Part shown: piece after piece, positions 1 to 53,703 of the stretch
How the letters are laid out: each line of letters opens with the position of its first letter
Numbering within the stretch: the first letter of the stretch is position 1
Origin: a virus
Lineage: Duplodnaviria; Caudoviricetes
Direction: 5' to 3' (one strand)
Length of the DNA stretch: 64,000 nucleotides
Virus record (IMG/VR): IMGVR_UViG_3300031867_000003
Span: 96,001-160,000 of that record
Notes under the pieces: generated by a model
Databases searched by the model: none
What the model saw: the letters and a program-made list of their open reading frames with translations, nothing else
What the model was told of the DNA's origin: nothing
Made by a program: the position numbers and the translations under genes

Positions 1-2439
1 ATAATCAATTTGTGTTTTATCTTTACGATAATATCTTATTTTATTAGCATAGTTTGCTGAACCTACAACCACTGTTCCTTTTGGTATATGACAATATGCA
101 AAACCATCTTCATCTGGATTTTCAGCATCTAATAAATTTCTATCTACTCTTGCCATAGTTATAGAATCCCATCCCTCAATGGGACAAATGTTGGAGTAAG
201 GTTCATAACTAGTCGCGGAACTACCAGATTCTAGCTGATAGTTATATAAAGCAAGAGAAGTAGTAGAACCATTCTTTATTACAAATAATCTAATATCTTT
301 TTCTTCTTCAATAGTAAAAGTTAATAAATTTGAATTTGCACTACTAACCATACCAGTATCATCATTTTTAGCAATTACATCCGCCGTTGTATTAACAGAA
401 AATGTATATGTTCCAGCTTTTAAATGAATAGATCCATTTGGGGTTGATGAAGACACGGTGCCACCAAAAACAATAGCTCCATTATTTTCTTCGAAATTAT
501 TTTGATCCAACAAATTCTTCCCACTTCCCCCAATCCACGGCTTATCATACCCATGGAGGTCTTGCTTCGGCAAAAACCATACCTTACATTCCTTCAAATC
601 CGCCGCCATATCCGTACCAAAGCTAATAATACTGTTTTTGGCGGTCACTGTATGCGGCGTCGCTGTAAAGATATTTTTCCTGGACTCTATTGGATCAAAC
701 ACCCCGATGTAATCATATTCGATTTCAATGCGGTCGGCATTGCTCCAGAAGTTGTTGTCGAACATGAGGGTACTTAGGGTGGTGGGGGAGAGTTGGTGAG
801 TAGTGTAAAAACTATCATTAATAAATGGATAGGCAATATAATGACCAGCATATTTTGTTTTAAACTCTTCCACGGTTGACACCGTACTATCATAAATATA
901 CATTGATGTCCCTTGAAATGTACCATCAGCAGTTGCAGTAGCATTTTCTAAACAATCGCATAATATCTCATTTGAAGCTTTAACACAGTATCCTTTTCCT
1001 GATACCCAATGTCTTAATAAAAAACGATGTAACCATGGCTCACCAGCACCAGAAGATTTTTCAATACTTGAAAATTCGCTCATATCTCGTCTTTCCCAAG
1101 TTTCCACCAATTCTCCGCTCACCAAATCTACATACCCACCATACACAGTCCCAACATCCTCGGACCAATCAATATCATAGCGGTTGACCGCGGGGCCGGT
1201 GACAAATTCGCCAGTTCCAGAATTGGTGTAGAATTGACCGGAGACCGCATCATACATTCCGGCGACTTTGTCAGATTTGCGGTAACAAGGGATAAGGTTA
1301 AATGCCAGATTTTCACCGTCATATAATGCAATTGAGTAACATTTGCAACCAAACATATGAGTTGAAGCACCGTCTGCAAAAAGTTGAACAGGTTTAGTTG
1401 ATTTAATACTGTTTGTATGCGTTGCTGTATATGTTTTGCCATTAACGACCATTGTTTTCTCGTTACTATCAAGATTATAGGTTGCTTCAAAATTATATTT
1501 TGTATCTACTGTGCTACTGTAAGCGTCCGTAGTCACATTAGTTTCACTCGATTGATACTCCCTAGAGTATCCAAAAAACTTGTATTGATAGATGCCAACA
1601 ACAAAACGTCCTGTTCTAGTATCCTGATTTCCAATCAAATCGCGTTCAGATGATATAGTCTTTGTTGTGAAATCAGCCAAAATCTTTATATTCTCTGTTT
1701 GCACATAATAGTTCGTATCTATATACTGCGTCCCTGTACTCTCCAAATATTCAACCTATTGATACTCCTTCGGCAATGAAAGGTTGGTTTTATAGGGAGT
1801 ATATTCGGTAGCTTCTGAGCCACGTTCAAGTTGAAGATTATAAATTCTATTTACAGCAGTTTTTGACGCATTCCCAAAGCAATTAAGAGATAGATTAATA
1901 CAGAAATCTTCTTCTGCCGTAAATGTTGTTGTAATATGACCGCTATCGTTACTAGCCTGTGGAATAGTCTTATATGAAGCTGTCCATGCCAAAGATGGTT
2001 TTCCAATAATACATGGTCTCCAATAATAATTTCCAATACCATTTATATAATCAAATGATAACGTATACGTACCAGGTGGAAGTAAATTGTCATAAACGAA
2101 TACGCCTATATCTCGTTGACCGGAAATAATAGTTCCAGATAATTCACCACTGGCAAAAATCATATCATTTGGTTCGGTTTTAACATTAGATGGATGATGA
2201 TAACTATTTATATTTGTTTCTAATAAATTCTTCCCACAATGATTTACCTCAACCCCAGTCCAACCGCTAATCGGCCGCACATTCTCAGGACTAGGAGTTC
2301 CGCTCCCTTCTTGCTTCGGACTAAAATATACCTTAAAACTACGTATTCTCTGGCTTCTGGGAGTGTAAAAATTCAAAAATTCCCCCGATAAAATCTTCGT
2401 TTTATCATTTGTCATAATTTCGTTCGTTACGTCTGCCAT
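1..2439 (-). CDS. Mosaic tail fibre / receptor-binding protein, partial (runs off the window)
   Basis: ORF 1756..2439 continues through TAG (LPKEYQ*VEYLESTGTQYIDT, a familiar phage fibre motif) and stays open to the window edge. Repeated modules GKNLL...QLExGSxATxYxPY. Confidence 0.8.
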
Positions 2440-2966
2440 GATGCCACACTCCCATAAGTTGCATTCTCAATGCTGATTGCGTATGTATAACCGGATTCAA
2501 TCACAAACCATTCGGGCATTTTGACAGTTGCGGGAAGAGTAAGAGTCGGAACAGTAGTACCGGCAGAAAATATTACTTCAGTGACACCTTCGCTTGGAGG
2601 AGTGAATGTTAACGAAGTAACCTCACCACATACATAGCGAGTGTTGGGGTTAGCTGTGATAGTAGGAGTAGTTCCCGTCACATTTATTTCAATACCGTCT
2701 TGGAAGCTATCGGCTACTACAGCTTTAACATCGGACTCGGTCTAATAACCGGCTCCGTTAGTTAACTGATTATTATTAGTAGGAATTGCCGCTTCAACTC
2801 TGTTAATCTCATCATCAACGTAAGTAGTAGTAGAATAACCGGCACCGTTTGTTAGTTGATTATTATTAGTGGGAATCGCCGCGTTAACTTCGGTAATTTC
2901 CCCATCTATATATTGTTTTGTTTTCTAAAGAGATGCTTGCAATTGATCTAATGTCGTAATTGCCAT
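2427..2966 (-). CDS. Small tail-fibre-associated protein (179 aa, TAG=Gln)
   Basis: ATG at 2966 with GAGGTG RBS; two in-frame TAGs; tandem IPTNNNQLTNGAGY repeats; joins ORF 2427..2681. Confidence 0.75.
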
Positions 2967-3004
2967 TATTATTCACCTCATTTCTTTAATAATTAATTAT
3001 ATAA

Positions 3005-3997
3005 TTAAGCTTTATATTTGTTGTACGATGTACGAAGAGTAGTGTCATCCAAACAAATATAAGCAGTAGTAGTATTAATATTGGAATGTCCCATAAGCTT
3101 TTGGATTTCATGAATATCCATACCGCGTTTAGATAAGTTCGTTGCAAATGTACGTCTCATGCGGTGAGGGTGTGCATTGTCCACGTTCGCACGTTTAGCA
3201 AGTTGGTTAAGAATAAACCTAACTCCGCCGGAATTTAACGGCTCATGATTGTGATTATAAAACAACATATTACCGGTTTCCGGGCGGTTATTCAGATAAT
3301 AACTCACGTATTTAACAGCCAAATCATTAGTATAAACCATTCGCTCCTTTGCACCTTTGCCGTGGCGAACATGAACGGAATAATCTATTAGATTAACATC
3401 GGTAGTTTTCATAGCAGTTAACTCCGATACCCTGATTCCGGTACTTAACAACATTTCAATTAACGCTCGTTCCTTCGCTGTTTTACATGCACACCGAAGA
3501 GCGTCAATTTCGACGTCGGAGAACGGTTTCTTGATTTCATCCGTATATTTTACCGGTTTAAGTTTGGCAATCGGATTCTTATCCAATATATCTTCATTAG
3601 TCATCCACTGGAAGAATGCGCTTAGATTTGCCCTGGTATTTTCAAGAGTGCGATTAGATACCTTTCTATCTTTCTCCATCGCTAGGAACATTCGTATATC
3701 ATAAATTCCCATCTCGGGAAACGGTTTATTAATTCTATCAGATAGTTTCTTTATGGTTCTGATATACTGATAGATAGTATTTTGGCTTTTACCTTCAATA
3801 ACTAGACAACCAATATAGCGGCTGATTAGCCTGGTATTAGTGTCATCGAGCGGAACAATTTCCGTGCAACGCTCAGTTACCTCATAGTCATTCAGTGTGA
3901 GAATAACCGTATCTGAAATAACCGATAGTTGCTCGGAAGTAAATAATCCGCATAATTTATTTTCAATTGTTTTAACTATTTCCATGCGATAATCCAT
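3005..3997 (-). CDS. Tyrosine recombinase (XerD/integrase family) embedded in the tail-fibre cluster
   Basis: STGIRVSE, GKGAKER, HPHRMRRTFAT and LMGHSNINTTTAY catalytic motifs; no internal TAG; AGGGAGG RBS. Confidence 0.92.
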   Translation of the reverse strand: MDYRMEIVKTIENKLCGLFTSEQLSVISDTVILTLNDYEVTERCTEIVPLDDTNTRLISRYIGCLVIEGKSQNTIYQYIRTIKKLSDRINKPFPEMGIYDIRMFLAMEKDRKVSNRTLENTRANLSAFFQWMTNEDILDKNPIAKLKPVKYTDEIKKPFSDVEIDALRCACKTAKERALIEMLLSTGIRVSELTAMKTTDVNLIDYSVHVRHGKGAKERMVYTNDLAVKYVSYYLNNRPETGNMLFYNHNHEPLNSGGVRFILNQLAKRANVDNAHPHRMRRTFATNLSKRGMDIHEIQKLMGHSNINTTTAYICLDDTTLRTSYNKYKA

Positions 3998-4036
3998 TGA
4001 CAACCCTCCCTATGCGTTTAATAATTAATCAATAGA

Positions 4037-4066
4037 ATTATAGCATAAGAAGGATTCTAATGTCAA
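4037..4066 (-). promoter_or_regulatory. Consensus sigma70/sigmaA promoter for the recombinase
   Basis: TTGACA-N18-TATAAT with extended -10 (TGcTATAAT), 40 nt upstream of the ATG. Confidence 0.8.
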
Positions 4067-4221
4067 CAATATGGTATTTAATAAATAATTATAAGTGTGC
4101 TTTAAGTTAGTAGTGCTATCGGTCTACAATTCCGTCCGATTATCGGAGGCTTGCTGAGTTCTAATGTTTTTTCAGAGCATTCGCCGTTTGTTTTTAAAAT
4201 TGTGTGCTTTAAAAGAGTTGA

Positions 4222-6294
4222 TTAGCTGTTTAATAGATTGTGCATATATCCATTGTATGCAATACCAAACGCTTCATAACCATACTGTGACGGATGCACG
4301 TTATCTGTATATACAGTTATCTGTGTTGGATTGTTGTATGTTGCATTAACTTGTGCTGTTACAAAATCATACATATTATCAAGATTAAGATTTTGATAAA
4401 CAATGTTTGCATTTGTATATGCGACAACCTGATTGTAACGGAAGCAAGCTAAATCAAATTCTTGATTATTCTGCATATACTTTCCTGTTCCGGTGTTATT
4501 CGCTGCAACATTACTTCCTACCATTACCGTAATTATTATATCAGCATTATAACTATGTATGCTGTTAATAATCTGTTGCATACGAGGTATTATGCTTGTA
4601 GAAAAACCATTATTTCTACCGAGTAATATATTAACAATTTCAACATCGTTAAATGATGTGTTGTTTGCCATGTAATAGCTAAAATCAAATGTTTGTGTTG
4701 TAGGGTTGTAAAATGGATTTGTAACACCACCTTTTGATGCAGAGAAGTAATCATTAACACTCCACCCGTTTCGACCTTCATGCAAATATGGTGCTGTTCC
4801 TCTTGATCCATACAATGTGACTTTTCCTTCATTGTGGTCATAAAACCATTTTTGAATATATTCGGCATTTGTGTATGAGTCACCTAAGAAAAGATATTTT
4901 TTAGGTGGCAATTCTGATATATTGCAATGAACAATAATCTGCTTACTTGCCACTTGTATTCCTTCTCTTTTAAATTTTATGGTTACGGTGATGTTTTTGG
5001 TTGACCTCACATTAAACTGAATATATCTGTCAGAGTATGTTATCTCTGGATAAGTGGCGCCTGTTGCTTCTACAACAAAATATCCATCATTTGCACCTCT
5101 GCAAAGTTCGTTGAAATATATTCTCTGTTGTACATTGGTTATATATACATCGGTTAATGGTAAGAACCTTATAATGCCAGAAGTTCGCATAATGCACGCT
5201 TCCTCTATTTTCGTTGATTCTATTGTAAGTCCTAAACCATTGGCTAATGTTATTTTGGACCAATCAACAACTGCTTTTGCAAGAAGTATGTTGTTGCTGT
5301 CGTAAATATATACTGTTTCAGTCGGTAAATCATTTCTGGAAGGTCTTGGAGCAGACACATAAATTCCGGTTCTTCCGCTTGTGCTTCTAATCTCCATTTG
5401 CGATGTATGCTGACTGGCATGATAAGCAAACAGTGCAGACACGTAATAATCGTCGTTATCATCCGCATATACCACTAAATCCTCTATCCCATTTTGTTCC
5501 CTTGAGTATACAATTTGTGCTGGGTATCCCGGTCTGTATAACGTAGAATCAGCAGTAAAAGGGTATATTCCTTGCGTTTCAAGAAAAGAAGCAAGCTTGT
5601 TTAGTGTAACAAGATCATTGTTTATCAACTTTACAGATGCAAACAAGGAAGCATTTGAGGGGGTATAAGCGGAAAATGTCGGGTCAATAATACCATTATA
5701 TCGTATCATTGGTCTAAAAATGACATTATCAAACGTTCTGTTTGCAGTAGTGTAAAACCTAAGTCGATAAAGTCCTGTATATGGTGCTGTAAAAACAACA
5801 TCAGATGGACCATTAACGGTGGCAACTATATCATTTTCTTCAGTTAGAATCTGCAAATTCATGTTTGCCTGTCCACCATTAAGAATGTATTGTTCATTTT
5901 CTATAAGATTGACTGTTTGAACATTTGCATATAACTTGCCTGTAGTGGTCCCATTTACGGTATATGTCCCATCTGAATTTGCTATTATTGATAATCCCAC
6001 TACAGACGGACTATTATATGTTGATGGCTGTAGCAGGTTTTTTGCTCCCATTTTATTCTGATACACACTTAAATCTGCCTTTATCTAAGATACATCATCG
6101 ACAAGTTCCTAGTAATCCGCCGGCGCATCTCCGCCACCGGTCGGTAAATTTTCCACGGTCTCAGTAAGACTATCTAAATCCGTTTGTAGCTGCCCAACGT
6201 CAGTATTGAGCGATTCTACTCCGGTTTCTATATTATTCATTTTATTGGCAGTGATGATATCTCCATCACTCCATGTAGTTTTCGTATAACTCAT
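4222..6294 (-). CDS. Tail-associated protein with C-terminal SGNH/GDSL hydrolase domain (690 aa)
   Basis: ORF 6109..6294 joins 4222..6066 through two TAGs (APADY*ELVDDVS*IKADLSVYQNK). FLGDSYT, LLGRNN and DNVHP SGNH blocks. Confidence 0.8.
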
Positions 6295-6307
6295 ACCAAT
6301 CCTCCTC

Positions 6308-8305
6308 TCATGAGAATACCTAATTCAACATTGTTGTTACAGAAGCATCGGTTGCTATGTCGGCATCCGTTAGGTAGCCGGTTAAATCAACTTTGGTGTC
6401 ACCAATCTATTCGAATTTATCTCCGGTGTAAATATATTCATAAAAGATATTATTAGTTGTGGCAATAGTAGCAGTACCAACTTGTGCTGTTCCGGTTATT
6501 GAATTGTTATCAATCCCTGTGTCGCCAATTGGCTTTGGCACAAGATAAATTACTCCAAGTTCGCCGGTTAATGTCGGGATGTAGGTAGTTGAATTATATT
6601 CACCGGGTTCGCAAACGTGATAGCGAGTGTTGACGAGATTATCTATTGCACTAGATATATCTGAGGACGTTGCGAAGCCTAACATAGTTTTGATGGCAGT
6701 CTTAGCTTCATCAGTATAGGTTCCTACGGCATTTGCGGATGCCGATTGAGTTGTATCACCGGCTGCTTTAGCTAAACCATAGAAAGTTGCAATATGCTAC
6801 CGAGCAGTATTAACTGCATATTTCGTATTATTGCCAAGCTTTAGAGAAAGATCTGTAGGATTAGTAGGCGATAGTACACCATTAGAATCAACATAAATCC
6901 CATTGGTAGAAACCACCTTTACTACCCCCGCTTTATTACCTGTAGCAATATCATCAAATGTCACATAATTACTCAAATCAATATCCAAAGTTCCAAGCCG
7001 TTCATACTTATCCGTAATCCAGATGTACTCATCAAAAACATCATTCGTCCCATGAGTGTGAGCAACCAGATAAATCACGCCTTTAGTTCCGGTAGCCGGG
7101 AGTTCAGTAACAACCTGGAATTCAAAACTGGTTATATCACTGATAGCGTCGGCGATTGCTGAGTCAATTCCTAACATAGATTGGATTGCGGTTTTTGCGG
7201 AATCGGTATATGTTCCGACAGCATTGGAAGATTGACTCTGTGTTGTGTCTCCAGCTGCTTTTGCGAGGCCGTAAAATACAGATTTATGTTGCTGTGACGG
7301 TACAATCGGTCTGAAATTATTAGTGCCATTATGGCAATCGTTATCTTCTGCTTTTACAACAGCAATAAATTCACTCCCACCAACTTCCAATCCGTATGCT
7401 CTATTTGTTTTTATAACACCTGCCGCATTGGTGCTAGAAATCGGAATATTAGCCACCTTGTTCTCAAGTATGCTCGTTCCGTTAACCTAAACATCATCAA
7501 CCTTACCAGCTTCACCAAATTCCCATGAAGTTACCTTGCCGTCGGAAACCGTCTTTGGCATCATAGCTTTACCGACATCAGTAGCAGTAGCGGTACCATA
7601 CTGGAGAGTATCTTCTTTAGTAGCTAATCCATTGGTAAGTTCTGTAGTAGTAGCATAAGAAGAATCATTCTATAGCTAACTAACCTTAGTCGGAATACTT
7701 GCTTCAAGAGTATCAAGTTCTCCGTCAACGTACTATTTGGTAGCATAATCACTATCATTCTGTAGTTGACTGGTTTTGGTCGGAATCGCCGATTCAACGC
7801 CAGAAATTTCGTCATCAACATAACCTTTGGTTGTGTAGTCACTATCATTGGTCAAATCACTTGTCTTAGTCGGAATAGTGCCGGAAAGTTCCTCAAGCGC
7901 TTGAGTCATTTCTTGGGCAAGTTGATTATCTGCGTTATCAAATTCTTGTCTAATTGCAGTAGCAGTTTGAGATAACGACTAGTTAACCTCGGCAATCGCA
8001 TCACCGGTTGCTTTGGCATCAGCGGATTGTCCGGAGTTTGTCAGTGTTGCATCCACAAGTGGGATAGCAATGTTGACATTCTTTTGGTCAATAGCTTGCG
8101 CATTGCCATTGACCTGGATTGATTCTATTATGTTCTCCTAGGCACCGGATTCGATTGATTCCAATTTAGCCACATCGGCATCCGAATAGTTGTTATCGGA
8201 CAATGACTTCCCGGGTTCTTTGTCAACCTTTGTGGCTAATTTCTCCTTCATGTAGGTAACCAGAGTACGTACTCCGTCAAAAGAAAGAAATTTTGGTTTT
8301 GCCAT
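6308..8305 (-). CDS. Fibre-like virion protein (665 aa, TAG=Gln)
   Basis: ATG 8305 with RBS; KVDKEPGKSLSDNNYSDADVAKLESIESGA*ENIIESIQVNG motif; IPTKTSQLQND repeats; same frame as ORFs 6797..7456 and 6407..6685; ends TGA. Confidence 0.8.
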
Positions 8306-8324
8306 AATGTATCACCCTCCTTTC

Positions 8325-8630
8325 TTATTCGTTATTTAATAAATTGTTGAGTTCCTCCTAGCTGATTTCGTCAGCCGGCAGCATAAATAATTCCTTTAGT
8401 TCGCCGATTAATTCTATACCGTTCAACGTTGGTAAGTTAGTAAGAGTCTCATAGTCAATCGTCGATAGATCGATCAAATCTGTCCATGAATCCTCGTCAA
8501 GGTATTTCCAGCGAAGCGTAGTTCCATCAATTGATAGCTCTACGGGGATACCGCGTAATGTTGCGTTACTAAGTAAACCAGTTAACTATAATTTTGGATT
8601 AATATTCCCATATAATGTTAAATCACTCAT
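8325..8630 (-). CDS. Hypothetical tail-associated protein (101 aa, TAG=Gln)
   Basis: ATGA overlap with the upstream gene; DYETLTNLPTLNGIELIG motif; two TAGs; ends TAA. Confidence 0.7.
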
Positions 8631-8980
8631 GTCCATCTCCTCCAGTTGCCTACCTCCGGAAGTATTTTAAATCGCGTAGGCGGAATGGCAGTCGTCACAA
8701 AATCCGCACCAGCAAGTGTTACCTCAATGTCATAGAAGTAATCCCCGGGAGGAATATCGCTTTCCTCTGGATTAATCCGCAATTCCATCGTTTCGGGAGG
8801 AATAATCTTTTCAATAATTGGTTTTTCGTCATCGTCGGTTGACGATTTCAGCCCAAATTTGATGATATCATCGGGGCTTGGTTCATAAGGATTTCCGTCG
8901 GCATCGTTAAGAGATAACTATATGCAACAAGAATCAGCCCTAGTTAATCCAATAATATTTTTCTTTATCCAACAAGCCAT
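8627..8980 (-). CDS. Baseplate upper (BppU-like) small protein (117 aa)
   Basis: GGAGGTG RBS; LTRADS...GDYFYDIEVTL...FKILPEV pattern; one TAG. Confidence 0.6.
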
Positions 8981-9004
8981 ACATTAATCACCTCCATAAA
9001 TCAA

Positions 9005-9046
9005 ATAAGTCGGCTACCGAAAATATCCAATTCCGGCAACCGACCA
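9005..9046 (-). terminator. Putative intrinsic terminator or hairpin
   Basis: GTCGGTTGCCGG...TCGGTAGCCGAC stem followed by TTATTT. Confidence 0.45.
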
Positions 9047-9058
9047 ACGTCGCGACAA

Positions 9059-9343
9059 TCAGCCATTTAATTTTGACCTCAAGTCCGCTATTAAATCACT
9101 ATATTTTACTCGTATCAAATTTGTTCCATTGCTCATAATAACATAATAATCATTGCTCAACGTTGTCTGCGCAGAAACCGCATTGATGTCTTGGGAATTA
9201 GCCGGGGTTCCGTAGAACCCATTAGCAAACCTCGCCGCTCCCGTGACCACCATATTGCCCGCGTAAACCTCGTCCGAGTTGATTGAATTAGCCCGTAGAT
9301 TATCCACGGTCGTTGTTTCTGCGATTTTTTCCGACATAATCAT
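9059..9343 (-). CDS. Hypothetical tail-associated protein
   Basis: ORF with GAGGAGG RBS; AGNMVVTGAARFANG motif also occurs in the large fibre gene (AGNLIVTGAGRFTNG). Confidence 0.7.
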   Translation of the reverse strand: MIMSEKIAETTTVDNLRANSINSDEVYAGNMVVTGAARFANGFYGTPANSQDINAVSAQTTLSNDYYVIMSNGTNLIRVKYSDLIADLRSKLNG

Positions 9344-9349
9344 GCCTCC

Positions 9350-9979
9350 TCAATATTCTATAAATTCAGTAGTATCGATGCGCCCGTCATAAACTCGCAT
9401 TAGATCGCCGGTTTCGATAAACCCCGGCTATGAACCATCGACGTATCCCCAATCGGTAGTATGTGGTAACCACGAAGTTGCCTACGGGCTACCTATTTCA
9501 ATTTTAAGATTACGTATGTACCAAGTTTCCGGATTCCCTTCTGCCGGACCGGCATATGGTTGTACCGCTACGCTAAAGTTAGATACCGAGGCAATGTCTG
9601 TGGGCAATGTATAACTCATAACAGTTCTCCCTTTACCGACTAACTCTAATGAACCAGTACAAGGATATATTGTTGAGGTCAAAGTTCCGTCGGTTTTATA
9701 ATAGCGGAATGATAAATGACACCCATATCTTCGTCCAAGTGTAGAATGTCGCCCAGTATTAACATTACGTTCTCCCAGCGTACAGTAATCATACGAAAAC
9801 CAAAGTATTTTGCCTTGATTAGCAACAATAATATCAGCTATCCCAGGACAAGACACACTTCCCGTGAAAGAATGTGACGAATATGTTGTAATACACGAAT
9901 AATTACCTGCGATTAAGTTAGGAAATATGGGGCTTCCGGATGCCAATATAATTCCCGTTTTATTGAATGGTACTCCCAT
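9350..9979 (-). CDS. Hypothetical tail protein (209 aa, TAG=Gln)
   Basis: ORF 9482..9979 extends through two TAGs (LKIEIGSP*ATSWLP) to TGA at 9350. Confidence 0.7.
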
Positions 9980-9982
9980 GGA

Positions 9983-11761
9983 TTACACCTCCGATAATTC
10001 GCCTTGGGTTAGGAGAGTTCCGGAGTTACTCAGGCTGATAGGCGTATGATATAAATCTGCAATTTCATCGGCACTGAGAGCGGTGTTATATATTCTAAAA
10101 TCTGACATTTGGCAATCACAATTATGAACTCTCTTTCCTATGGTGTAATAATAATCCATAGAATTACTATCTGTAATTGTGTTTGTATACACAGATTTTC
10201 CATTCTAATACATTGTAATTACTCCATTATCATATGTAAGAGCATAATGTGCCCATTCACCTATGGTGTACGTCCAATTATAGTGATCGAACGGATATGT
10301 CGATTCTCCCTATCTAATTGTTAAGCTCATTTTATTGGCATTAGAAGCATGTAAGGCATTACATATAGAAAAAGTTCCGCTGACACCATTTAATGCCGCA
10401 GTATTCTGTAGAAGAAACATCCCCTCCCATTTTTTTTGCCAACTATTCACTTTGCCCCACCAGGCAATCGTAAATTCGTTACTTAAATGGATGGTGGAAG
10501 TATTATTAATAATATATGATGAGCCATCAAATGAGGAACTTGCAGAATACCGTGGTGTATCTCCAGAAGCGATGATAGTATCAACTTTAGTAGCATTATT
10601 TCCAAAACCGCTCACATCGTAAACCACATTACTATCTAATCCCATATCCGAATAGAGACTATCTGTCGAGTTGGGTATCCAAGGCGTCGGTGTATCACCC
10701 TCTTCAAGTTTGATACATTTTATCGAGACAGTTCCGGTTCCGGAACTCATATTATAAGTATTTCCTACCGCTCCCATTCTCGGACAAATCACATGTTTTA
10801 CGGCCGTTGTTTCATTCTAAGAATATGTTACCCAATAATGTTCCCACTCGGTAGACAATGTAAAATCCATATTCCCGTCACTAATTGTCTTTGTAATTCC
10901 TTGGCTACTTACGCAGGTTGTGGTTGTGTTTGGGCTATAAAAATGCGTTCGTATTTTATCGCCGTCAACAGTTGATTTTGCCCAAAACGATAATGTATAT
11001 TTCGAAGCCGTCGGAACAATAGCCGTGACACAACTCCATCTATCCGAGAATGAACTAGACGGATACTCAAAAGTTCTTTCTTCTGGCCAAGTATTCGGAA
11101 TAATATTATCTGCTCCAAAACCTTCTCGTGATAGCGGATAATGAAGCAGCAGCGCCTTGGATACTTCCTTGATCTCACGAGGAGAAAGAGCAGTATCATA
11201 AATGCGGAAATCATTAATTCTTCCATTCAGAGTAGTCGCTCCGGTTCTGTAATCTCTTCCTAAATAAAATAACCCTGAAGTTTTTGTTAATTTAATTAAC
11301 GAACTGGCATAAGTATCTGTTTGTAATGAACCATTTTTATATATACATATTTTACTCCCATCGTATGCAAGCACTATATGCACCCATGTGTTTATTTCTG
11401 CGGTAGTGTCTGTAAATATTTTATCCGGACCACCATTCCAGAAAAATCTAATTTGGTGACTAGCGGTTAGTTCAATGTTAAAATTAATATGTCCGGATAA
11501 TCCATAATCTCCAAATATAATCCCTCTTGTTGAATCTGCATGATATATCCAGAACATTATTGTAAACGGCTTATCGCCACCTTGTATTATATTATATAAA
11601 TTAGAATCATCTACACTAATAAAACTATTGCTGCCATTAAAACTATAGCAATTTCCTATTTTCCCGGACGTATTAATGGTGGCTCCGCTATTAGTGATAA
11701 CCGCGTTATCAAGCCCATAGTTATTAAGATTATTAATCAACGGTAACCATAAAGCTAACAT
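9983..11761 (-). CDS. LamG/concanavalin-like domain tail protein (592 aa, TAG=Gln)
   Basis: Three same-frame ORF fragments joined by TAG; two LamG-like ends (INDFRIYDTALS, MSDFRIYNTALS). Confidence 0.8.
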
Positions 11762-11812
11762 ACTCCACCTCCTCCCAATTAAATTTATTTTTCATTATCA
11801 TCAGTTCCTTTA

Positions 11813-14800
11813 TTAATTAAATACAAAATCCAAACAACCCAGTGTTTTGTTCATTATAAGGCTGCACGATCCATCAATATTAGTACCACTTGTTCCGATG
11901 GATACCTCGCCGTTAAATGCAGCATTGCCGGCATTATCAACAGAAGCAACCGTTGCACCTGCCGTATTATTTTTTAATATCCAACCGCGATTATCCGCTC
12001 CGCTCATATAACTATAAATTGCCCAATCGCCTTGAACGTGACCATGTTTGCCACCATTAGATGTTTGTCTCATTGCAATACCATAAGCAGTAGGAGCGGT
12101 ACCATATAGTGCTATTCCTCCGGCGGCGCCGGAATTTCCGGAATTTGCCGCTATATAACTGCTTGTCGCAAAACTCGTCCCCGTAACCGCTCCGGTAAAT
12201 TCTCCGCCGGTTTTAGGAACGGCATAATTACTATAATTACTATTGTCGAGCAATATTTTCCAAGCATTCCAGTTAGCAGTATCGGATGAACCGGAATCAT
12301 TCTGTCTCCATTGAAGGACACCATTGTTGGCAATAAGCTGCCATTTATCATTGCTGCTTCCGACTTGAAGACCGACCCAGTCAAGTCCAGCCCATGGAGT
12401 CCCACTTCCGGCAAATGAGAACGTACCGGCTGTGTTGTTAATGGTTGTTGCATCAACGACATGATTAGCTAAGTAATCGGCATTTGTTGCTTTTGTCGCA
12501 GACGTAGCTGTAGTAGCAGTAGTAGCATTCCCCGTTACGTCGCCGACTAAATTTGTCGCATAAATATTTGACCATTTTTTAGATGAAGTTCCTAAATCAT
12601 AAGTATTATCTGTATTCGGAGTGATTGACCGATGAATGGGATCATCAATTCCTCTTGACATATGCGTCATTCTTGTACCTATACCACCATAATTAACAAT
12701 ACCAATTTGTGCAATTCTATTCTATGCATTAATAGCCCATCCACTTAATACAATCCTTATTCTATTAAAACCGGTAACAGATGTTCCACTTGCATTGGTA
12801 GAATTATGAGAGAATCTGACCATCCAGTGACCAAATACATTATTGGTAATCGATCCTTTCTATACGTAAGCCGACTCTGTTGCAGAATTATATACCAAGA
12901 ACTATATATTTTTTGCTCTCCAATTAGCAGATCCGAAATCTATATAGAATGTATTGCTATAAGTATAAGTCTACGGGCATGTGATATCAATAACCGTTGT
13001 TTCTGTTTGTGGACGATTAATTCCGACATATGTTGGGCTACCATCAAACGCATTGGTCAAATTAATAGAAATAGGCGTTTTATCGATTGATAACGGGGTA
13101 AATGACGTTGCCGTGGTCGAATACATCTCATATGAACCGCCTCGTTCATCAAGATATGCTAAATCATTAAATAAAAACGGCAATATAACACTCTCGGTAT
13201 CTTCCGGCTATAAGCTCAAATATGTTGTTTTTTCCGGTACGCCGTTATTAAAATAAACCGGTGTTCCCCATGAGCCGGCACTTGTACTTAACTTCGTCGC
13301 GGTTGTGGCGGTGGTTGCAGTAGTAGCATTGCCTGATATATTAATACCCCAAGTCCCGGTTGCCCCGGTGCCGTCAAGTTTAGGAGCATAAGTATTATAG
13401 TTATGGGAATCTAACAAATATTGCCATTCGCCCCAGTCAGAAGAATTTGCAACACCATCAATAGTGGCGCTTGCAGCACCTCTAATCATAGCTTGTGGTG
13501 TTTTTGTGTGCTATACATAAAACTGTGATCCCCATCCACCATTGTCCCAACCAAATGTCAAAATACATCCGTCTCCAGCCGGCGGTTTATGAGTTGTCAT
13601 AGAGGATGATGCAAGAGCAAATGTCACCTTACTTAACTAAGTGCTATTCTATATATCGGCAGAAGCAAGTCTACCAAGTGACGTTATTTTTTTTGTGGTA
13701 GTCGCTACACTCCATCCAGCTTGTGAACTTGCTGTACCGGTTGTATCGCCGGTAAGCGTAACCGCCTACGCACTCGCAAACTTTGTGGCTGTCCCGGCAT
13801 TACCGGTAATAGTAGTTATGCTCGGTAATGTTAGTTTATTAGTTCCCGTTGCGGTAATATGACCATTGATATCATATGTTACGGTTGGTACCGTAAAACT
13901 TCCGCCGTTAGTTAATGTGGTATTGTTTGCCGTACCTTGTGCAGTTCCGCCGGCAGTAAGTTGGTTCGTATGTTTGATGGTGGCTATACCACTTGAAATA
14001 GTAACATTAATACCGCCATTAGTAGCACCACGAATAGTATCGGCACCGACAGTACCAATGTCTGATACGGTAATTGAATCAAGCTTAGCTTTGTCTTCTT
14101 TACTCATCCAACCATTTGCTCCGTCGGTTGCGCAATCCGAAATTTCTGCTTGAGTAAATGTTACTGCACCGTCCCATTTGACGGCGGTTTTCTTCGTCTT
14201 ACCGATGGTAAAATCACGTCCGGTAGTTAGAGAACCGGCAGTTCCGGCACTTCCGGTAACAGATATCCCCCAAGTACCGGATGCACCGGTACCGGCTTTT
14301 GTTACAGTATAATCAGTATAATTACCTGACGTTAAAAACTTATTCCAAGAACTCCAAGAATTTGAAGAACCATCGTAAAACCGTATCCATTTAGTTCCGT
14401 TAGATGCTAATTCTTGTGTTACATGACCACCGGCAGAAGCATAAGTTACCATGCCAAACTAGCGCCCAGCATTTGTATCCGGAGTAGTTTTTGAATTTGC
14501 TGGATTATTAGATACATTATTGCTTCCAAGGGCATAATAATACAACGTTTTTTGAACCGTACGATAATCATTCAAATCCTAATTAGTTAATGCCGTTGGA
14601 GTTATTGAAGTTGCTGCATCAGCATTTGTAGCAGAAGTAGCAGTCGCGGCATTGCCGGTAATACTGATTCCCCATGTACCGGTTGCACCAGTACCGGCTT
14701 TGGAAGGAGCGTAGATATTATAATTATTCGAGTCAAGTACAGTTAGCCAGGTTTCGTCCCATGAGGTACTATTATTACCTCGAATATATATATGAGGGGT

Positions 14801-25806: not shown

Positions 25807-28800
25807 TCAGTGTCCGGCTTTTCTCATATCTTTAGCTATTTCTTTGGTAGTATAGTTATAAATGTTCTTTTTAAATGATGCATTGCTCATTAATCCCTTG
25901 GCAATTTCTTCTAACTGTGGCACTATGGACTGATCCGCGTTGCCGTCAATTCGAATAAGATTGTCATAGTGGATGGTGATGTTCTGATTTGTGCTATGAT
26001 TAATATTATATTCCGGTGTCTGGAAGTTAGGTGTCTAGACAGGCACCATTCCAGATTTAGCCATAGCCATAAGGTTCTCCGTAAGGTCTGCCGGGATAAC
26101 TCCGTCTCCGGCTTTTAACGGCATTAACATTACACCACGACGGGTGATAATAGCTTCCGGACCCTTTTCGTTGATTTGATAAAGCCCCGGCTTCGCGGAT
26201 TTCGTTCCTTTCGCAAGACCGCCACTAAGATATTCTTCTCCTAGTTTACCGCCACTGAAATCACCGTTTATGAGTAATTGTCTAAACATGTCATTAAGAT
26301 CGCCGACCTGCTCGCTGATTTTTGTCGCCTCGGATTTCATAGCTTGCCAATAGTCGTATTCTTTTTGAGAAAGATTATCTTTATAAATGTCTAATTTCTT
26401 GCGTATATTACTGCTACTAAGATTAACTCCTTCAACATATTTATACTATACATCGAGATCTTCTCCGACCATCTATGGAACACCCATATTTTGTTCGCCC
26501 TAGAAGGCATCGGGGTGGAACGACTTAAGATAAGCATTAAAAGAAGCATTTACGTTACCAAGTGAAGCTTTAAGGTTAGTGGCAGAATCAACTACAAGTT
26601 GTGCCGCATGGTCAATATTTATAGATAAGTCTTTTACAAACTTCTCATAATTTTCTTGAAGTTTTGCTGAAAGATCGGTTAATCCGTCAATACGGAGATT
26701 TACTATATGATCTTTGACAGTGTCATCAAGTTCTTCTTGCATTTCCGCACGTTGTGCTTCAAGGCGAGCCTTTTGAGCACGGCTCTCGGCATCAGTTCAT
26801 TTATATTCACATGGTTCGCTACACCATGCCGTGTGAGATATAACCAATGGTATATCCACACTGCTCATGCTTTCACATGAGATTAGACTATATCATCTAT
26901 GGAAATTTTCCATAGTCTGTTGTTTCGAATTGCCAGCTTGCAATCCTACGTCCCTACACTCATCGGGACTAGTCGTTGAACGTTTCCTAGTATGTCTAGA
27001 ACTTCGCTGCTGATTGCCCAATATTTATCATTTTTAAACTATCGTAATTATTTATTATCACTGTAGTGATAAATCTCTAAGGGTTTCCCAGCAATTAAAC
27101 AGAATGCCCAATATAATTAGGCCATTTAGTGCGCGGATTTGCTGTTCGATAAGCTGCACATCTTTATTTTGCTTGCGTAGTTTCTTATCGTAATCGTACA
27201 TCTCTTTCTTTTTATTTATCTCATTTTTCCGGGCTTCAATAAGTTTGTTAATATAAGTAATTTCTGTTTGATACCTATCGGTTACATCCTTAATAATCAC
27301 CTGTCTCTGAGACGCGAGAGAAGTAATTACATCGCGAGATTGCGCTTCATATTCTTTCATTTTGGAGTTATATGTTTCTATATCAAGAGACGGATCTTCT
27401 CTTAACCGATTAGTAAGCACTTGTTGAGCTGTTCGAATTTTTGTAAACTAATCTTGTAGCATTTTATAGCTACGAACATCCATTGCGTATTTTGCAGTAC
27501 CAAGTTCAGTAAAGGTGCCGTCGGTCGTATACATCATTTCCGGAGAAATTGTTCCTTTGAGCTAATCTAAGGCTTTATGTACGGTGTCAATATTTTTAAT
27601 CATATCTTCCAAAGGTTTGAAATATACATCTTGCCTCATATCATCATATAAATTATTGATTTCTTCATCTAATTTATATACTTCTATATTAGCCTTTTGT
27701 ATATTTGCCATCATTGCTTTGTGCGCTTCGGAGTTCTCCAGAATTGTTCCGGCTTTAACATAGCTATCTAATAACTCCTGCTGGGCTTTCGCCTAATTTG
27801 CATATGCTTTTTGAGCGTCTTTTAATCGGTCGATTTGTCCTTCATAGTTGCTCTTCAAAAAGTCAATCGAAGAGTTCTTCTTGATAGTTGCTTTTCCGGA
27901 TTGATCATAAGAATAGCTAATTCCGTCAGTCAGTAATGTCGTGCGAGGTATATTGGTATTTCTGACGTATTCTCCGTCTTCATTCTTAGTAGCAATATAA
28001 TATCCTTTATCTACCGAATAAACAACTCTTGATTCACCGACTTTTTTTCCATTGGTCTTGAATGTCGGCTATGTGCTATTAAGTTGGTCGGGAGCAATAT
28101 AATATCCGCGTTCTTTCCATACTTTACGTATTTCTTCGCGGCGATCCGCCCAGGTTTTGGATAAATTAACGGCCGCTTGATACCAAGACTCGATATTATC
28201 CATCTTTTCCTATGCGATCTTTTGCTCGCGCTCTGCAACTTCAACCGCAGACTAAATGAGTTCTTCCCTCATTTTTTGCTCTTGTTCTCTGGCTTGACCG
28301 AGAGCGCCGGTAACATTTTCCAATGATGCCGTAGCATTATTCCATAACGCAACCGCCTCCCCAAGTTCGTTAGACACTCTTGTCGGATCTATTTTCCAAC
28401 CGTTATTTAAAGCTTTATTAATAAAATCTTTTTCTGATTTGGAAGCCTTTTTATACGCGTCATTGCTCAATATAGATTTCTTTGCTTTGTCGGATTCTTT
28501 TTTTAGCGAAGCCTATTGAGATGCAAACTGGGTTGTTATTTCCTATTGTTCCTCTATAGCGATCCGGCGCTTTTTCAATTCCTCTTTCAGCTAACGCATT
28601 TCCTTATCAATGTTTTCATTTTGCGCTATATAACTCGGCTTATTAAGAGAGCTTTCCATAAGTACATTAGCCTATCCATAAGAAGTGTCTTGTAAATTTT
28701 TCAATTCGTTTTTGTCGGCTCGGTTCTATTTTCTAGCGGCCTAATACGCTTTATCCGCACTATTCTTGGCGGTTTTGGCAGCTGCTTCTTTTTTGATTTT

Positions 28801-31800
28801 ATTATTGTAATCATCGACAAGCTTTTTGAAATAAGGCCCCCTATTTTTATTATATGGAATAAGTTCACCTTTTTTCATTGCGTTTAGTATTGAATTTTTA
28901 TCATTCTTCGAAACTTTTTTATTTGCTTTAAGATAATTTTCTAATTCAGTTTTGGATTTCTATGTTAAATCTTTGCGGCTTTCATATTTACTTTTGGCGT
29001 CATTATAATTCTATAACTTAGTGGCTCTGTCAGCTGTAGACTTAGCTACCACATCTTTCTATGCTTTTACCCCCGTGGCAAATTCTATCCAGCGCTGCGC
29101 AGACGCAATGCCGGATTTTCCGCCGGAAATTGCACTTGTTATTCCGGAAATAGTATTGATTCGGTTCTCAATTTTATCAAGCGCCTTCTCTAGCTTTTCG
29201 GTCGGTAGCTAGATAATCTGGCTCTGAAGATCTCTCATTGTATTCGCAAGTTCTTGTATCGCATTATTTGCGTCGCGAGATTTATTAATATAATCGAGAT
29301 ATGCGCGAGCGCCTTCAACAAAAGCGGCCTAATTAGGATTGGTCGTCTCTATTTGTTCAAGATTATATTTGCCTTCAAGTAAATCTTTTTGATTAAATTT
29401 GCTCCAGATATTTACTGTCTGTTTGTTTCCGTCTTTGTCCGTATAAACATAGGCTTTTGCTAATTCTTCGGCGAAATTTTTGTATGTCGTCGCGGCGCGA
29501 GAGTTGGCTTTAATTTCATTCTGGAGTGCGGTAACTTCGCTGCGAAGAAGTTTCCCCTTAGTTGCGTTGGTCACATAATCGGTAATCTTGTCGGCAATTT
29601 TCTTCGTTGCGTCAGCAAAATACTGAAGACGAAGTTCAACGTAATCGAATATTTCTTGGGAGAATTGAGGTTTATCGGCATTGTCATTGTTATTATTTCC
29701 GGCATTGTTGTTACCGCCACCACCGGTACTTGCTTGCTAATTGCCACTACCGACATTTACGTTGTTATTATTGCCGGTAACAGTTACTCCGGATTGCCCA
29801 CCACCGCCACCGGTCCATGTAAATGTTCCGCCGCCATTACCGGCATGAGCATTCATTCCATTAACTGTCCCTTTCGCAAATGCGGATGAGCCGCCAATTA
29901 TACGTGCGTGGCTAGATGTACGACCTTGTTTAAGAAGATCTTCCGTTTGTTTGTGATTAAATCATATATGTTTTTCTCAGTTCGCTACGCTGAGAAGGAA
30001 TTATTATAATTCCCTCATAGTTTCCTATGAGATCAGACTATATCATCTACTCAAATAGAAGAGTAGTTTACCGTTTCAAGGGTCAATAGCTTACCCCCTA
30101 CATGATAGTCGTTGAACCTTATTCTATTCGAATCTTGGCTGCTGATTACCAAATAATAATATTTTAAAAACTTTCACGATTATCTATATTTCATAATTTC
30201 GTTGTAGTTATTATTCTCTAATGGTTTTCCAGCAATTAGATAAATTTTTCAATGTATGTTGCCATACAAAGTCGCATAATTAATACGACGTCGCCCCTCT
30301 TAAGGTTTTCTATATGTGGTCCACCAGGAACGAGGAACCATTTGCCGTTTCTTATGATTGATTCCGTTCCCAATTCATTAATCAAGCTTTCTTGGTCTTT
30401 GTCTATTGCGATGTCACCTTTTGCATATCCACTCATATCTTTGTAGTTAAGCATATTATATGCGCTACCGGATTTTGCTACCTTGCCTTCTTCGTCAAAC
30501 GTGCCTTTTGCATAACCTCGCCCTATTGATGAGAGAGTACCAGAATATGAAGCAGCATTTTCTGCTTTACCAGGTTTATTAACTTTGCCAGGTTTATGCG
30601 AAGCACTAGAACTTGCACTCTAACTTGGCTTCACAACAGTACCAGTAACAGTAGCACTAACATGGGCACTAATACTAATGTTGGCAATCATAGCACGAAT
30701 TCTACTTACTGCACTTTGCGCAGCGCTTATTGCCCTATCTGCATTACCGTCAATTGTGATTCTGGCGGTTCTTCCATTCGCAGACGCAACCGCTTGATTA
30801 ATCGCACTAATTGCGCCAGAATTATTGCCATTAATGGTAATTCTACCGGAACTTGAGTTAGCATGAGAAACCGCAGTAGCTATTGAACTCATTGCCTAAG
30901 AGTTGTCTCCACCAATTGTAATTTTGGGGTTTGCATCTTCAACAGTGGAGACCACTTCTTCCACAGAAGAAATAGCCTACTCATTATTAGCCTAAATATT
31001 TATAGGTTCAGAGGCAGATGATTTGATATTATCAACCGCAGTTTGGATTGCCTAAACCTGTGAAAGAGCGCCGGAAGTTGTTATGTTTAATGCTATATTC
31101 TGGGCAGCAGCTTTAACTCTGTTAATTAACCCAGATAATGCACTAATCTAACCGGCTGCCTAACTGGTATTTGCAGTAGTTGTAACTGTTTCTGTTTTTG
31201 TTTGCGTCTAATCTTTATTTCCGCCAAATAAACCCGAAATAGCATTTTTTGCTTTTTGAATTACTTCAACTATAGTAACTTTTTTTGTCGCTGGTTTTTC
31301 CGCCTATGCTTGAATTTCATCCTAGCCGGTAGCTTCAAGTTTAACTTCCTTTGTGTACTCCTCGCCATTAATCGCAGCACTAACAGCTTCATTAATCCCC
31401 TAGAGAGAACCCTCGTCTAATTTGACGGGCATAGATATTTCTTTTCCGTCAATAGAATTAATCATTGCTTCGGCGGTTTCCACATCAGATGTATCTATGT
31501 CCAAAGTGGCGGAAAGAGTTCCATCATTCATCGATTGCTATAATTCTTCTAATGAACCGCCATCTTCAAGATACTGTTCTATTGCAACTCGCACGTTATA
31601 CTCCTGTTGGGTCTTTGCTTCAAGCTATTCAAGCTATGCAAGTGCTTCTTGTCCGCCTTCTTCTTCGACATTGATTTGCGCTTTCATTTCGGATATTTCA
31701 GCTAATTTATTCTAAAGTTCATCAACACTCATCGAAGCGGCATCGAATTGAGTAGCCCCCTCGAATTGAGTACCTTTAAATAATGCTTCAACCTTGTCGG

Positions 31801-48222: not shown

Positions 48223-48438
48223 TCAAACGGTCATAGAAAGCATTATATTGGCAATATCTCGCACACAATCTTTGCGACCAATATCTTTAACTATAGCTAT
48301 GGCTAAATATGTTTCCCAATAATCAACAAAATGTTCGTCATCTTCAGTAACATCATCGCATCCCCAACGTCGCACTACTTCATTAAACTTTTCACAAAAT
48401 TCCAATATATTTTTACATTCTTCCATAAACCGCCTCAT
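48223..48438 (-). CDS. Hypothetical protein
   Basis: ORF overlapping the recombinase stop (ATGA). Confidence 0.5.
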   Translation of the reverse strand: MRRFMEECKNILEFCEKFNEVVRRWGCDDVTEDDEHFVDYWETYLAIAIVKDIGRKDCVRDIANIMLSMTV

Positions 48439-49439
48439 TGTATTCCAAACATCTCATTTATTTTATCTTCGGTTTCATCCTTAAAATAGCCGGAAGTGGT
48501 AGTCAAATCAGAATGATGAGCAAATGCCTGGATTTGATCTAACTCAAATACCTTATTATTGCCATTTTCATCTTTAAGCCGGTCATCCCAACCTTTTTTC
48601 AACGCTTGGAGTCGGGAATGGCGACAACTATGAGGAAAAATATTTACTTCCTCTCCGCGAACTTCAGATAATATTTTACTAATACTAACAATCCTGTCAT
48701 AAAGAGCTCCACAGTCAACTTCAGAAGCCGTTTCCCCATGTCCCTTAATCCACAAGGAATCTATTCCGTCATCTCCGCGCCATTCCAAATATTGCCTAAT
48801 TAATTCCCTGGTGTCATTTAAATAAATAAGAGGAAACTGCTTTCCTCGCTTTCCTCTGACTATATTGGTTTTATTGCCTTCAAGAAGACCGTCTTTTTTA
48901 ACTTGATAAACCTCATTGCGTCTCGCTCCAGAATCATACATCAATGACCACAACACAGCATCTTGCAGTCTACCACGTTCAAGAAGAATATCTCGTGTTT
49001 TTACAAACTCTTCATATGTAAAGAAGAAATCATCATCATTGGTTTTGACCTTTTCATTCGGAACTCCGCGAACCTTTTTACTATAATTGATTTCATAATC
49101 ATAATCGTCATCTTCTTCGCAAAAAGTCAACATTGAGTTAATAGAAGAGTGGAGACGATTGCATCTTGCCGGCGACATTCCGGAATCGTCAAACCATATA
49201 TTTAAACGTCTAAAATCTTTCTTTGTCATCTCAAGCACTGATTTATTATCAAAGTCCTCTAATATTTTAATAAATATTAATTTCAAATCATATCTGTAAG
49301 CATTAATGGTGTTAGGACTTTTTTTCTGCTGGCGAAGTTCCGTAAGGAAGTCTTCCATAATGGCTTTATTTTCTGGATTAACCTTGGCCCATTTTTCATC
49401 GGTATATATTCTATTATAAACTCCTCGGCTTCTAGCCAT
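48435..49439 (-). CDS. Tyrosine recombinase (phage integrase family) within the tail module
   Basis: DSGARRNE, GKRGK, FPHSCRHSR and AHHSDLTTTSGY motifs; no TAG. Confidence 0.9.
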   Translation of the reverse strand: MARSRGVYNRIYTDEKWAKVNPENKAIMEDFLTELRQQKKSPNTINAYRYDLKLIFIKILEDFDNKSVLEMTKKDFRRLNIWFDDSGMSPARCNRLHSSINSMLTFCEEDDDYDYEINYSKKVRGVPNEKVKTNDDDFFFTYEEFVKTRDILLERGRLQDAVLWSLMYDSGARRNEVYQVKKDGLLEGNKTNIVRGKRGKQFPLIYLNDTRELIRQYLEWRGDDGIDSLWIKGHGETASEVDCGALYDRIVSISKILSEVRGEEVNIFPHSCRHSRLQALKKGWDDRLKDENGNNKVFELDQIQAFAHHSDLTTTSGYFKDETEDKINEMFGIQ

Positions 49440-53368: not shown

Positions 53369-53703
53369 AGGCTACCTCCTAATAAGAATCTCCATCGCTA
53401 TAGGTGGGCGTTCTCATTATAGGAGATAACGGTATTCAAAACTCAATAAACCCGGCCACTCGCTCCGCTCCGTGGCCACTTACGGCCGCATAAGCGGCCA
53501 CTGGGATCCGCCGTATGCAATATAATTCATAAGCACTATATCTGCGATATCTTTATCATATGTTTTAGTAGCCAATTCAATATTAGTTACAATTTCCCAT
53601 TTATGGTCATGTAATGAACGTAGATATACAGTTTTTCCTTCTGCATCAATGGAGGCTATTACATATTTATTTATAGTTTTTTCCAATTGCTTTCTCATAA
53701 TAT

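Follow-up and report, generated by a model that had tools for sequence, protein, structure and literature searches.

A tyrosine recombinase-linked fibre tip cassette in a TAG-recoded phage: a possible natural form of cassette exchange among phages of Clostridia

The window analysed here (64,000 nucleotides [nt]; bases 96001-160000 of a single 202,175-bp virus record, IMGVR_UViG_3300031867_000003, that is rated complete) belongs to a gut phage that reads TAG as glutamine, and gene lengths are given throughout with TAG translated in that way. All late genes of the window lie on the minus strand and read through TAG, and the early genes are TAG-free. This report concerns one fibre gene (4222-6294, minus strand, 690 residues), the tyrosine recombinase gene that follows it, and the short palindromic sites that accompany both. 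In gene direction the fibre cluster runs from P0003 through the fibre gene (6294-4222), a 218-nt spacer and the recombinase (3997-3005) to P0004 and a 1070-residue fibre protein (Table 1). A first-pass annotation made from the sequence had placed a tyrosine recombinase right after a fibre gene inside the fibre cluster, and that is where it lies.

Table 1. Features of the fibre and recombinase locus and of its immediate context
Feature	Coordinates	Strand	Remarks
Upstream native fibre gene P0003	6308..8305	-	9 TAG codons; context
Constant N-terminal anchor, residues 1-76, native and recoded	6067..6294	-	TAG codons at 6109-6111 and 6085-6087
Junction site J, AGATAAA-GGCAGA-TTTAAGT in gene orientation	6067..6086	-	encodes (Q)IKADLS; family-pattern match
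Imported C-terminal module, residues 77-690 plus stop	4222..6066	-	beta-sandwich domains and probable SGNH/GDSL esterase; TAG-free
3' site A, CTTTTAAA-GCACAC-AATTTTA	4192..4217	-	begins 5 nt past the stop codon
Insert between direct sites A and B	4111..4191	.	short, non-coding
3' site B, full, AACTTAAA-GCACAC-TTATAAT	4086..4110	-	20 nt upstream of the recombinase promoter
Recombinase promoter, sigma-70-type, TTGACA-18 nt-TATAAT	4037..4066	-	read from sequence
Xer-like tyrosine recombinase, TAG-free	3005..3997	-	open reading frame 3005-4003, likely ATG at 3997
Downstream native fibre-like gene P0004	2427..2966	-	2 TAG codons; marks the right edge of the putatively imported block

The fibre gene is divided in its use of the recoded stop. 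TAG occurs at codons 62 and 70 only, whereas residues 77-690 (614 residues) use 27 CAA or CAG codons and no TAG, and the codon count thus bears out the earlier description of an anchor with two TAGs joined to a 614-residue tip with none. In neighbouring late genes TAG makes up 26-36% of the glutamine codons, a share at which a count of zero in the tip would have a probability of about 7e-5 (0.7^27). The guanine-plus-cytosine (GC) content of the tip is 0.353, compared to about 0.41 in its flanks. On the opposite strand, no open reading frame (ORF) beyond 61 residues was found between 4000 and 6300.

A protein search found the anchor, MSYTKTTWSDGDII...(I/L)KAD(L/I), in ten proteins: P0014-P0020, P0022, P0023 and the window's own (P0006-P0023 are database proteins and L-numbers are the DNA loci compared; L036 is a piece of this phage's genome). 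Anchor identity to the window was 76-95% in the closest six (P0014-P0019) and 65% in P0020. The C-termini directly behind this shared anchor were unrelated and comprised other GDSL esterases, GDPD phosphodiesterases, a BNR-type domain and Big_3 repeats. The window tip itself recurs behind quite different N-termini in P0006 (85%) and P0007 (71%), and homology within the tip has nested breakpoints near residues 227 and 360. Comparison of relatives had been named beforehand as the check on an exchangeable C-terminal module starting at IKADL, and the relatives compared break exactly there.

Relatives of the tip were found in genomes of Eubacteriales, Lachnospiraceae and Ruminococcus, as well as in contigs of phages that use the standard code. 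Two loci represent candidate donor lineages: in L031, an SGNH-type fibre precedes a recombinase with 57% identity to the one studied here, and in L004 the fibre shares its N-terminus with P0006 and the recombinase is 58% identical. The TAG-free tip, its lower GC content and its relatives in standard-code phages uphold the proposal that the module was imported in a form compatible with the standard code. These comparisons indicate that the tip came from standard-code temperate phages, and the sites and the recombinase most likely did so as well. Sigma-70 consensus promoters and strong Shine-Dalgarno sites, together with the closest relatives found for several genes, point to a host in the Clostridia. 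A crAss-like phage of Bacteroidota was our first thought and was dropped, since the same promoters, Shine-Dalgarno sites and relatives speak otherwise.

The last domain of the tip is probably an SGNH/GDSL esterase. The SGNH blocks GDS, G, GxN and xxH (G395-D396-S397, G431, G483-N485 and H591) are invariant in nine homologues, and the homologues P0008 and P0009 carry precomputed PF13472 matches; however, PF13472 itself scored only 18.1 bits on the domain, below its cut-off of 32.9. Of the SGNH-bearing tip described earlier, the catalytic blocks therefore stand and the family assignment is no firmer than probable. A PDB profile search of the tip found nothing. The AlphaFold2 model had a mean predicted local distance difference test (pLDDT) score of 59, and a Foldseek search with the whole model gave uninformative matches with low template modelling (TM) scores.

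The boundary between anchor and tip coincides with site J. The junction DNA reads TCT TAG ATA AAG GCA GAT TTA AGT and encodes Q-I-K-A-D-L-S; J occupies codons 70-76, and at its right arm the homology of the anchor stops and that of the tip starts. Because the last TAG lies inside the left arm and tip homology runs from the right arm, the change in code compatibility falls within J. On the plus strand the core of the site is TAAATCTGCCTTTA at 6070-6083. We first viewed this TAAA-N6-TTTA motif as trivial, since 4-bp arms occur at chance level genome-wide (12 matches to the loose pattern in this genome vs. 12 in shuffled sequence), and reversed that view once a family pattern emerged in relatives. 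The chance that the loose pattern falls on the anchor/tip junction is about 12 x 30 / 202175 = 0.002, and J is the sole combination of hinge and site among 21 late genes. The switch motif TAAA-GGCAGA-TTTA, as first singled out, can thus be taken as real on the strength of its exact position at the junction and its membership of a site family that is enriched in relatives.

Downstream of the fibre stop codon, the 11-mer GTGTGCTTTAA occurs at 4095-4105 and 4202-4212. These are its sole two copies in the 202-kb genome, and none of 100 shuffles reached two. The 11-mer forms the left arm and spacer of sites A and B; in site A, the left arm and spacer are conserved and the right arm is poor. The two TTAAAGCACAC copies that had been proposed as recombinase-type sites match the 3' sites found after fibre stop codons in relatives, and both the junction motif and the 11-mer repeats have the short palindromic arms around a 6-bp spacer that had been expected of such sites. 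A further proposed element, an inverted TAAGTGTG pair, is present at 4092-4099 and 6064-6071, but its standing as a recombination site was lost, as two or more copies appeared in 47 of 100 shuffles. J (spacer GGCAGA) and sites A and B (spacer GCACAC) differ in spacer and all point in the same direction. The 218-nt spacer folded no better than shuffled sequence (z = -0.43) and held no tRNA and no Rfam family, and no relevant long inverted or direct repeats were found in window positions 1-12000.

Arrangements of site, insert and site like that of A and B also occur in L061, L074 and L077, and in all four loci the duplicated 3' half-sites around small inserts look like insertion scars. In L031:5931-6085, a 133-nt piece lies between two direct 3' half-sites, is closed by a long stem and includes a hairpin that resembles a T-arm (GCGAGG TGCAAAT CCTCGC); this piece had no Rfam match and a fold z-score of -1.8.

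The site family was surveyed in 39 related phage contigs with the pattern [ACT]TAAA-N6-TTTA[AGT]. In relatives, a palindromic site stands directly past the stop codon of the fibre gene, and its distance from the start of the recombinase is fixed at -184 to -218 nt, as in L085 (TACTGACTTAAA-TAGACC-TTTAAGTCAGTA), L003 (GATTTAAA-GGGCAA-TTTAAAT) and L072 (AACTTAAA-GGGAAC-TTTAAAC). The version of the site that lies within the fibre ORF encodes a hinge, x-L-K-x-[DA]-L, with examples such as SQLKEDLSE, TDLKADLNV and SDLKSDLDI. Site density was 0.21 per kb in fibre ORFs (13 matches in 61 kb) and 0.85 per kb in the interval from the stop codon to the recombinase (13 in 15 kb), compared to 0.013 per kb elsewhere (4 in 317 kb). 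The first leucine of the hinge was encoded by TTA in 16 of 16 positions vs. a background of 23% in these genes, and the lysine by AAG in 14 of 18 positions vs. 41%; this bias indicates that the hinge is constrained at the DNA level. One identical 16-mer was shared by five different fibre genes.

Breakpoints in relatives fall at the same sites. In six fibre-gene pairs, N-terminal DNA similarity ended 0-4 nt from the end of the in-ORF site, and the internal ends of protein high-scoring segment pairs were about 7-fold enriched at the hinge. Similarity between phages downstream began at the 3' site, with unrelated fibre genes upstream of it. In L077, two fibre genes flank the recombinase; both carry the same 16-mer within the ORF, and their 3' spacers are identical. 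By these comparisons, J and the 3' sites belong to a single family of palindromic sites, which frames the fibre modules of related phages. The 12-kb loci of relatives yielded no second full site, and no inverted half-sites were found inside fibre ORFs. The gap past the fibre stop codon in L064, L072 and L084 holds a second type of palindrome, AACTAAA(C/G)NCCCATTTAG, beside the TTAAA-type site or replacing it; its arms resemble those of the more distant, shufflon-associated recombinase clade described below.

The 330-residue recombinase matched PF00589 at 131 bits (cut-off 27.1; 5e-38), and its catalytic residues R191, K216, H280, R283, H306 and Y315 were invariant in eight sequences. No arm-binding domain family was matched. 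A Shine-Dalgarno sequence, GGGAGGG, precedes the gene at 4004-4010. Relatives numbered 442 in IMG/VR and 175 in bacterial genomes; we refer to those at 47-62% identity as the close clade and to those at 31-43% identity as distant relatives. Among the 28 close-relative contigs with enough upstream DNA, 23 had a large plus-strand ORF (at least 200 residues) upstream of the recombinase, and many upstream ORFs of relatives matched tail-fibre, virion structural, esterase or phosphodiesterase families, which marks the clade as fibre-linked. The downstream neighbour in relatives is a holin or endolysin, and there too the recombinase gene is preceded by a promoter of its own and closed by a terminator. 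In the loci examined, terminators and no site followed the recombinase stop codon. Between the 3' site and the recombinase promoter, L005:7510-7710 and L031:6160-6360 each hold a small reverse-strand ORF that is ribbon-helix-helix-like by eye only.

The genome has four tyrosine recombinases in all, three of them besides the fibre-linked one. A 400-residue integrase (genome 81544-82746) adjoins a classical attP-like region in which repeated TTTGTTACCT arm sites accompany the 5' half of a tRNA-Pro, and together these are probably the real integration module of the phage. The attP-like region lies outside the window, at genome 82060-82330 (L036:2060-2330), where a promoter and the 5' half of the tRNA-Pro have TTTGTTACCT on both sides. 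A separate classical integrase is likewise encoded on the other strand in L004, L005, L031 and L132, followed in L005 by a CI-type repressor. In the Blautia celeris chromosome of L157, the homologue of the fibre-linked recombinase is internal to a prophage, beside a fibre gene and 0.9 kb from a classical integrase. A search for attB in 401 genomes of the order that contains the Lachnospiraceae metagenome-assembled genome (MAG) of L033 gave only AT-rich chance matches of at most 41 bits. Because both the relatives and this phage carry separate integrases, the gene content argues that the fibre-linked recombinase is not the lysogeny integrase. Plain import of the block together with an ordinary integrase was considered as well and is weakened by the separate classical integrases and by the conserved order of fibre, recombinase and holin. 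Elsewhere in the window, a TAG-free tyrosine recombinase (48435-49439) and a transposase gene (51752-53395) lie in a GC-rich patch (0.46).

The first-pass annotation had likened the locus to an integron or a shufflon. Models of the integron integrase IntI scored far below their cut-offs on the recombinase (TIGR02249, 77.8 vs. 265 bits; NF011946, 55 vs. 435 bits), with XerA, XerC and XerD models higher, there are no attC-like sites, and the recombinase is co-oriented with the cassette and downstream of it; the integron comparison was therefore abandoned. The sites are 20-nt palindromes, and the spacer has no significant fold; in integrons, by comparison, intI is divergent and accompanied by attI, and the promoterless cassettes of the array are each closed by an attC, an imperfect palindrome of 57-141 nt. 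What the locus does share with integrons is a tyrosine recombinase beside a site where imported cassettes gather, with scars of the site-insert-site kind (A/B, L061, L074 and L077). It differs in having no folded single-strand attC and in that the cassette is fused in frame to an anchor and not driven by a Pc promoter.

Shufflons were found among the distant relatives. In L157:5600-9000 (Blautia celeris NSJ-34, NZ_JACOOU010000003) and L142:5000-9500, whose recombinases are 36-37% identical to the window's, four sites of 24-54 nt lie around the recombinase in alternating orientation, with cores CTAAAC-TCCGC-TTTAGG and GAACTCCACTTTGG. Simulated inversions, worked in these two loci only, stay in frame and yield four paralogous C-termini at each locus. 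Inverted repeats flank the recombinase in at least 25 further distant relatives, all of them Lachnospiraceae prophage or phage loci, and in none of the close clade. The arms of the sites track the clade of the recombinase, with CTAAA...TTTAG in the shufflon clade and TTAAA...TTTAA in the clade of the window. Judged by these arrangements, distant relatives of the recombinase sit in true multi-inversion fibre shufflons. For this genome, however, the shufflon proposal failed: partner sites in inverted orientation and alternative cassettes are both lacking, and the spacers of J and the 3' sites differ. Inverted full sites with the same core were absent from the window, the 202-kb genome and 39 close relatives. 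Features of the shufflon type that are present here are an armless Xer-like recombinase beside the fibre gene, a separate integrase, and an in-ORF site at the boundary between constant and variable parts.

These features recall the Rin shufflon of Bifidobacterium prophages, in which the phage encodes a XerD-like tyrosine recombinase that has no arm-binding domain (Mavrich et al. 2018, Sci Rep 8:12772, PMC6109161). The Rin recombinase adjoins a receptor-binding protein gene with a constant N-terminus, variable C-termini and an in-ORF crossover site, and a separate lambda-type integrase lies elsewhere in the genome (PMC6109161). L157 and L142 share exactly this design. The clade of the window differs from it in having one large tip where Rin has several small inverted ones, and its sites are palindromic with a 6-bp spacer, in direct order and with two different spacers, an arrangement in which inversion would be impossible. 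The hosts of Rin are Actinobacteria, whereas those of the window clade are Clostridia, and the likeness is one of design. A constant adhesin or fibre N-terminus joined by site-specific recombination to alternative C-termini is also known from the R64 shufflon (Rci, PilV tips) and from Gin of Mu, Cin of P1 and Min of p15B (PMC6109161). All four of these systems need inverted sites, and the window is without any. Gin, Cin and Min are serine recombinases, and they and R64 act by inversion on inverted repeats within one replicon.

Two further systems bear on the comparison. In engineered recombinase-mediated cassette exchange, a cassette lies between heterospecific lox or FRT sites whose arms are alike and whose spacers are incompatible, which allows exchange and prevents excision; this is a laboratory construct, and the present locus would be its natural equivalent. 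In the fibres of T-even phages (gp37/38), P2, Mu and P1, a conserved N-terminus that serves for attachment is combined with receptor-binding tips that have been swapped, the breakpoints coincide with short conserved motifs, and the exchanges are attributed to homologous recombination. Unlike the locus studied here, these fibres are not known to involve a dedicated recombinase or a palindromic site pair. As to the genetic code, the integrases of amber-recoded gut phages are reported to be TAG-free (Borges et al., bioRxiv 10.1101/2021.08.26.457843). The fibre-linked recombinase likewise avoids the recoded stop, so it would be producible under the standard code of the host; it differs in apparently not being a lysogeny integrase, and a structural module is TAG-free here too.

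Taken together, these results suggest that 3005-6086 is one cassette of a recombinase-linked exchange system for receptor-binding tips in phages of Clostridia, a reading to which we assign a probability of roughly 0.45. The recombinase, whose role in tip exchange we infer from sequence comparison, would bind the arms common to J and the 3' sites. Because the spacers of J and of sites A and B differ and the sites are direct, the module would be neither excised nor inverted within this one genome. Where two phage genomes are co-resident, recombination between their J sites and between their 3' sites would instead swap the tip, in the manner of engineered cassette exchange, and the union of a standard-code tip with the recoded anchor of this phage could have arisen from such an event. 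In its most specific form, which we offer tentatively, the proposal is one of natural cassette exchange: a Rin-related recombinase, acting on two heterospecific palindromic sites, at the hinge (LK-x-DL) and past the stop codon, would swap entire modules, receptor-binding or esterase, between co-resident phages of Clostridia, including from standard-code temperate phages into the 202-kb TAG-recoded phage. We would class the locus with the Rin-type systems of fibre diversification by a tyrosine recombinase, as a new variant with a single cassette and direct sites, an arrangement that dozens of related phages share.

Several points weigh against recombinase-linked exchange. No recombination product, excised circle or alternative isoform was seen for this phage or its clade. 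The unlike spacers of J and the 3' sites have no partner in the 202-kb genome that matches either one, and the right edge of the putatively imported block, just past the recombinase stop codon, lies at a plain gene border without a site. Fibre genes are also followed by similar 3' motifs in phages lacking a recombinase of this kind (the L018 group and L028), so the sites could act via another protein or through general recombination, and the identical stretches of 16-31 nt at the hinges might be enough for phage-encoded homologous recombination. The unmatched spacers, the plain border, the phages without such a recombinase and the identical stretches all favour an explanation in which the hinge and 3' motif are conserved linkers, tips are swapped there by ordinary homologous recombination or by that of the phage Red/Erf type, and the recombinase, as a mere passenger, would be a degenerate Rin-like invertase brought along with the imported block and inactive at this locus. 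This explanation is the main rival of our reading, and we regard it as somewhat unlikely. It does not readily accommodate the same arm-spacer-arm palindrome in coding and non-coding positions, the strong constraint on codon choice at the hinge, or the fixed distance of the 3' site upstream of the recombinase; moreover, the recombinase is intact in dozens of phages, with its catalytic residues and its own promoter and terminator, and the site arms co-vary with its clade.

That the wider recombinase family consists of inversion systems raises the thought of a decayed shufflon or an on/off switch, in which an ancestral Rin-like inverter lost its tips and what is left is either inert or silences the tip by inversion or deletion. 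An 8-mer that resembles a half-site (spacer plus arm) is indeed inverted at the junction, and by our own reading an inversion between J and site A would leave an anchor that stops at about 79 residues. Yet the 8-mer is at chance level, inverted full sites are lacking here and in the 39 close relatives, and the single-cassette layout is conserved throughout the clade, unlike random decay, all of which makes this history improbable. We give still less credence to an ordinary lysogeny integrase or a dimer resolvase of the Cre/Xer type, with A/B as its attP or lox-like site and the fibre neighbourhood incidental. The recombinase is an Xer-like member of PF00589, a single palindromic site stands beside its promoter, and it is TAG-free like the integrases of recoded phages (bioRxiv 10.1101/2021.08.26.457843); however, the separate classical integrases in relatives and in this phage, the internal position of the homologue beside a fibre gene in the integrated Blautia prophage of L157, and the absence of attB from the 401 genomes searched all speak against it, and the in-ORF J sites and the breakpoints there would be left unexplained.

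Phage host range is set by fibre tips, and precise exchange of tips is mostly put down to chance homologous recombination. The locus draws attention to a large group of gut and rumen phages of Clostridia, as yet undescribed, in which the tip is a defined cassette, delimited by a site encoded in the hinge and a site past the stop codon and accompanied by a dedicated recombinase. If the recombinase does drive exchange, the system would be a natural counterpart of laboratory cassette exchange and a simple handle for retargeting, in laboratory strains, phages of anaerobes that are hard to culture, and it would explain how a recoded phage gained access, across a genetic-code barrier, to the pool of standard-code modules. 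The distant relatives, for their part, show that fibre shufflons of the Rin type, with a tyrosine invertase, are not confined to Actinobacteria and occur in many prophages of Lachnospiraceae.

A few other observations were made on this phage. A megablast search of INPHARED phages gave no match, and a scan of JGI metagenomes gave two short anchor fragments and nothing more. The 1070-residue fibre protein downstream (window 1-2439; the gene continues beyond position 1, genome 95227-98439) has its sole TAG at codon 228 and 26 CAA or CAG codons; it looks like a second imported, TAG-poor C-terminal part, yet it has no LK-x-DL hinge or site. Five group I introns scored above the Rfam gathering thresholds (26864-27128, 30014-30294, 37970-38255, 56742-57093 and 60204-60481), all on the minus strand and within or between giant late genes.

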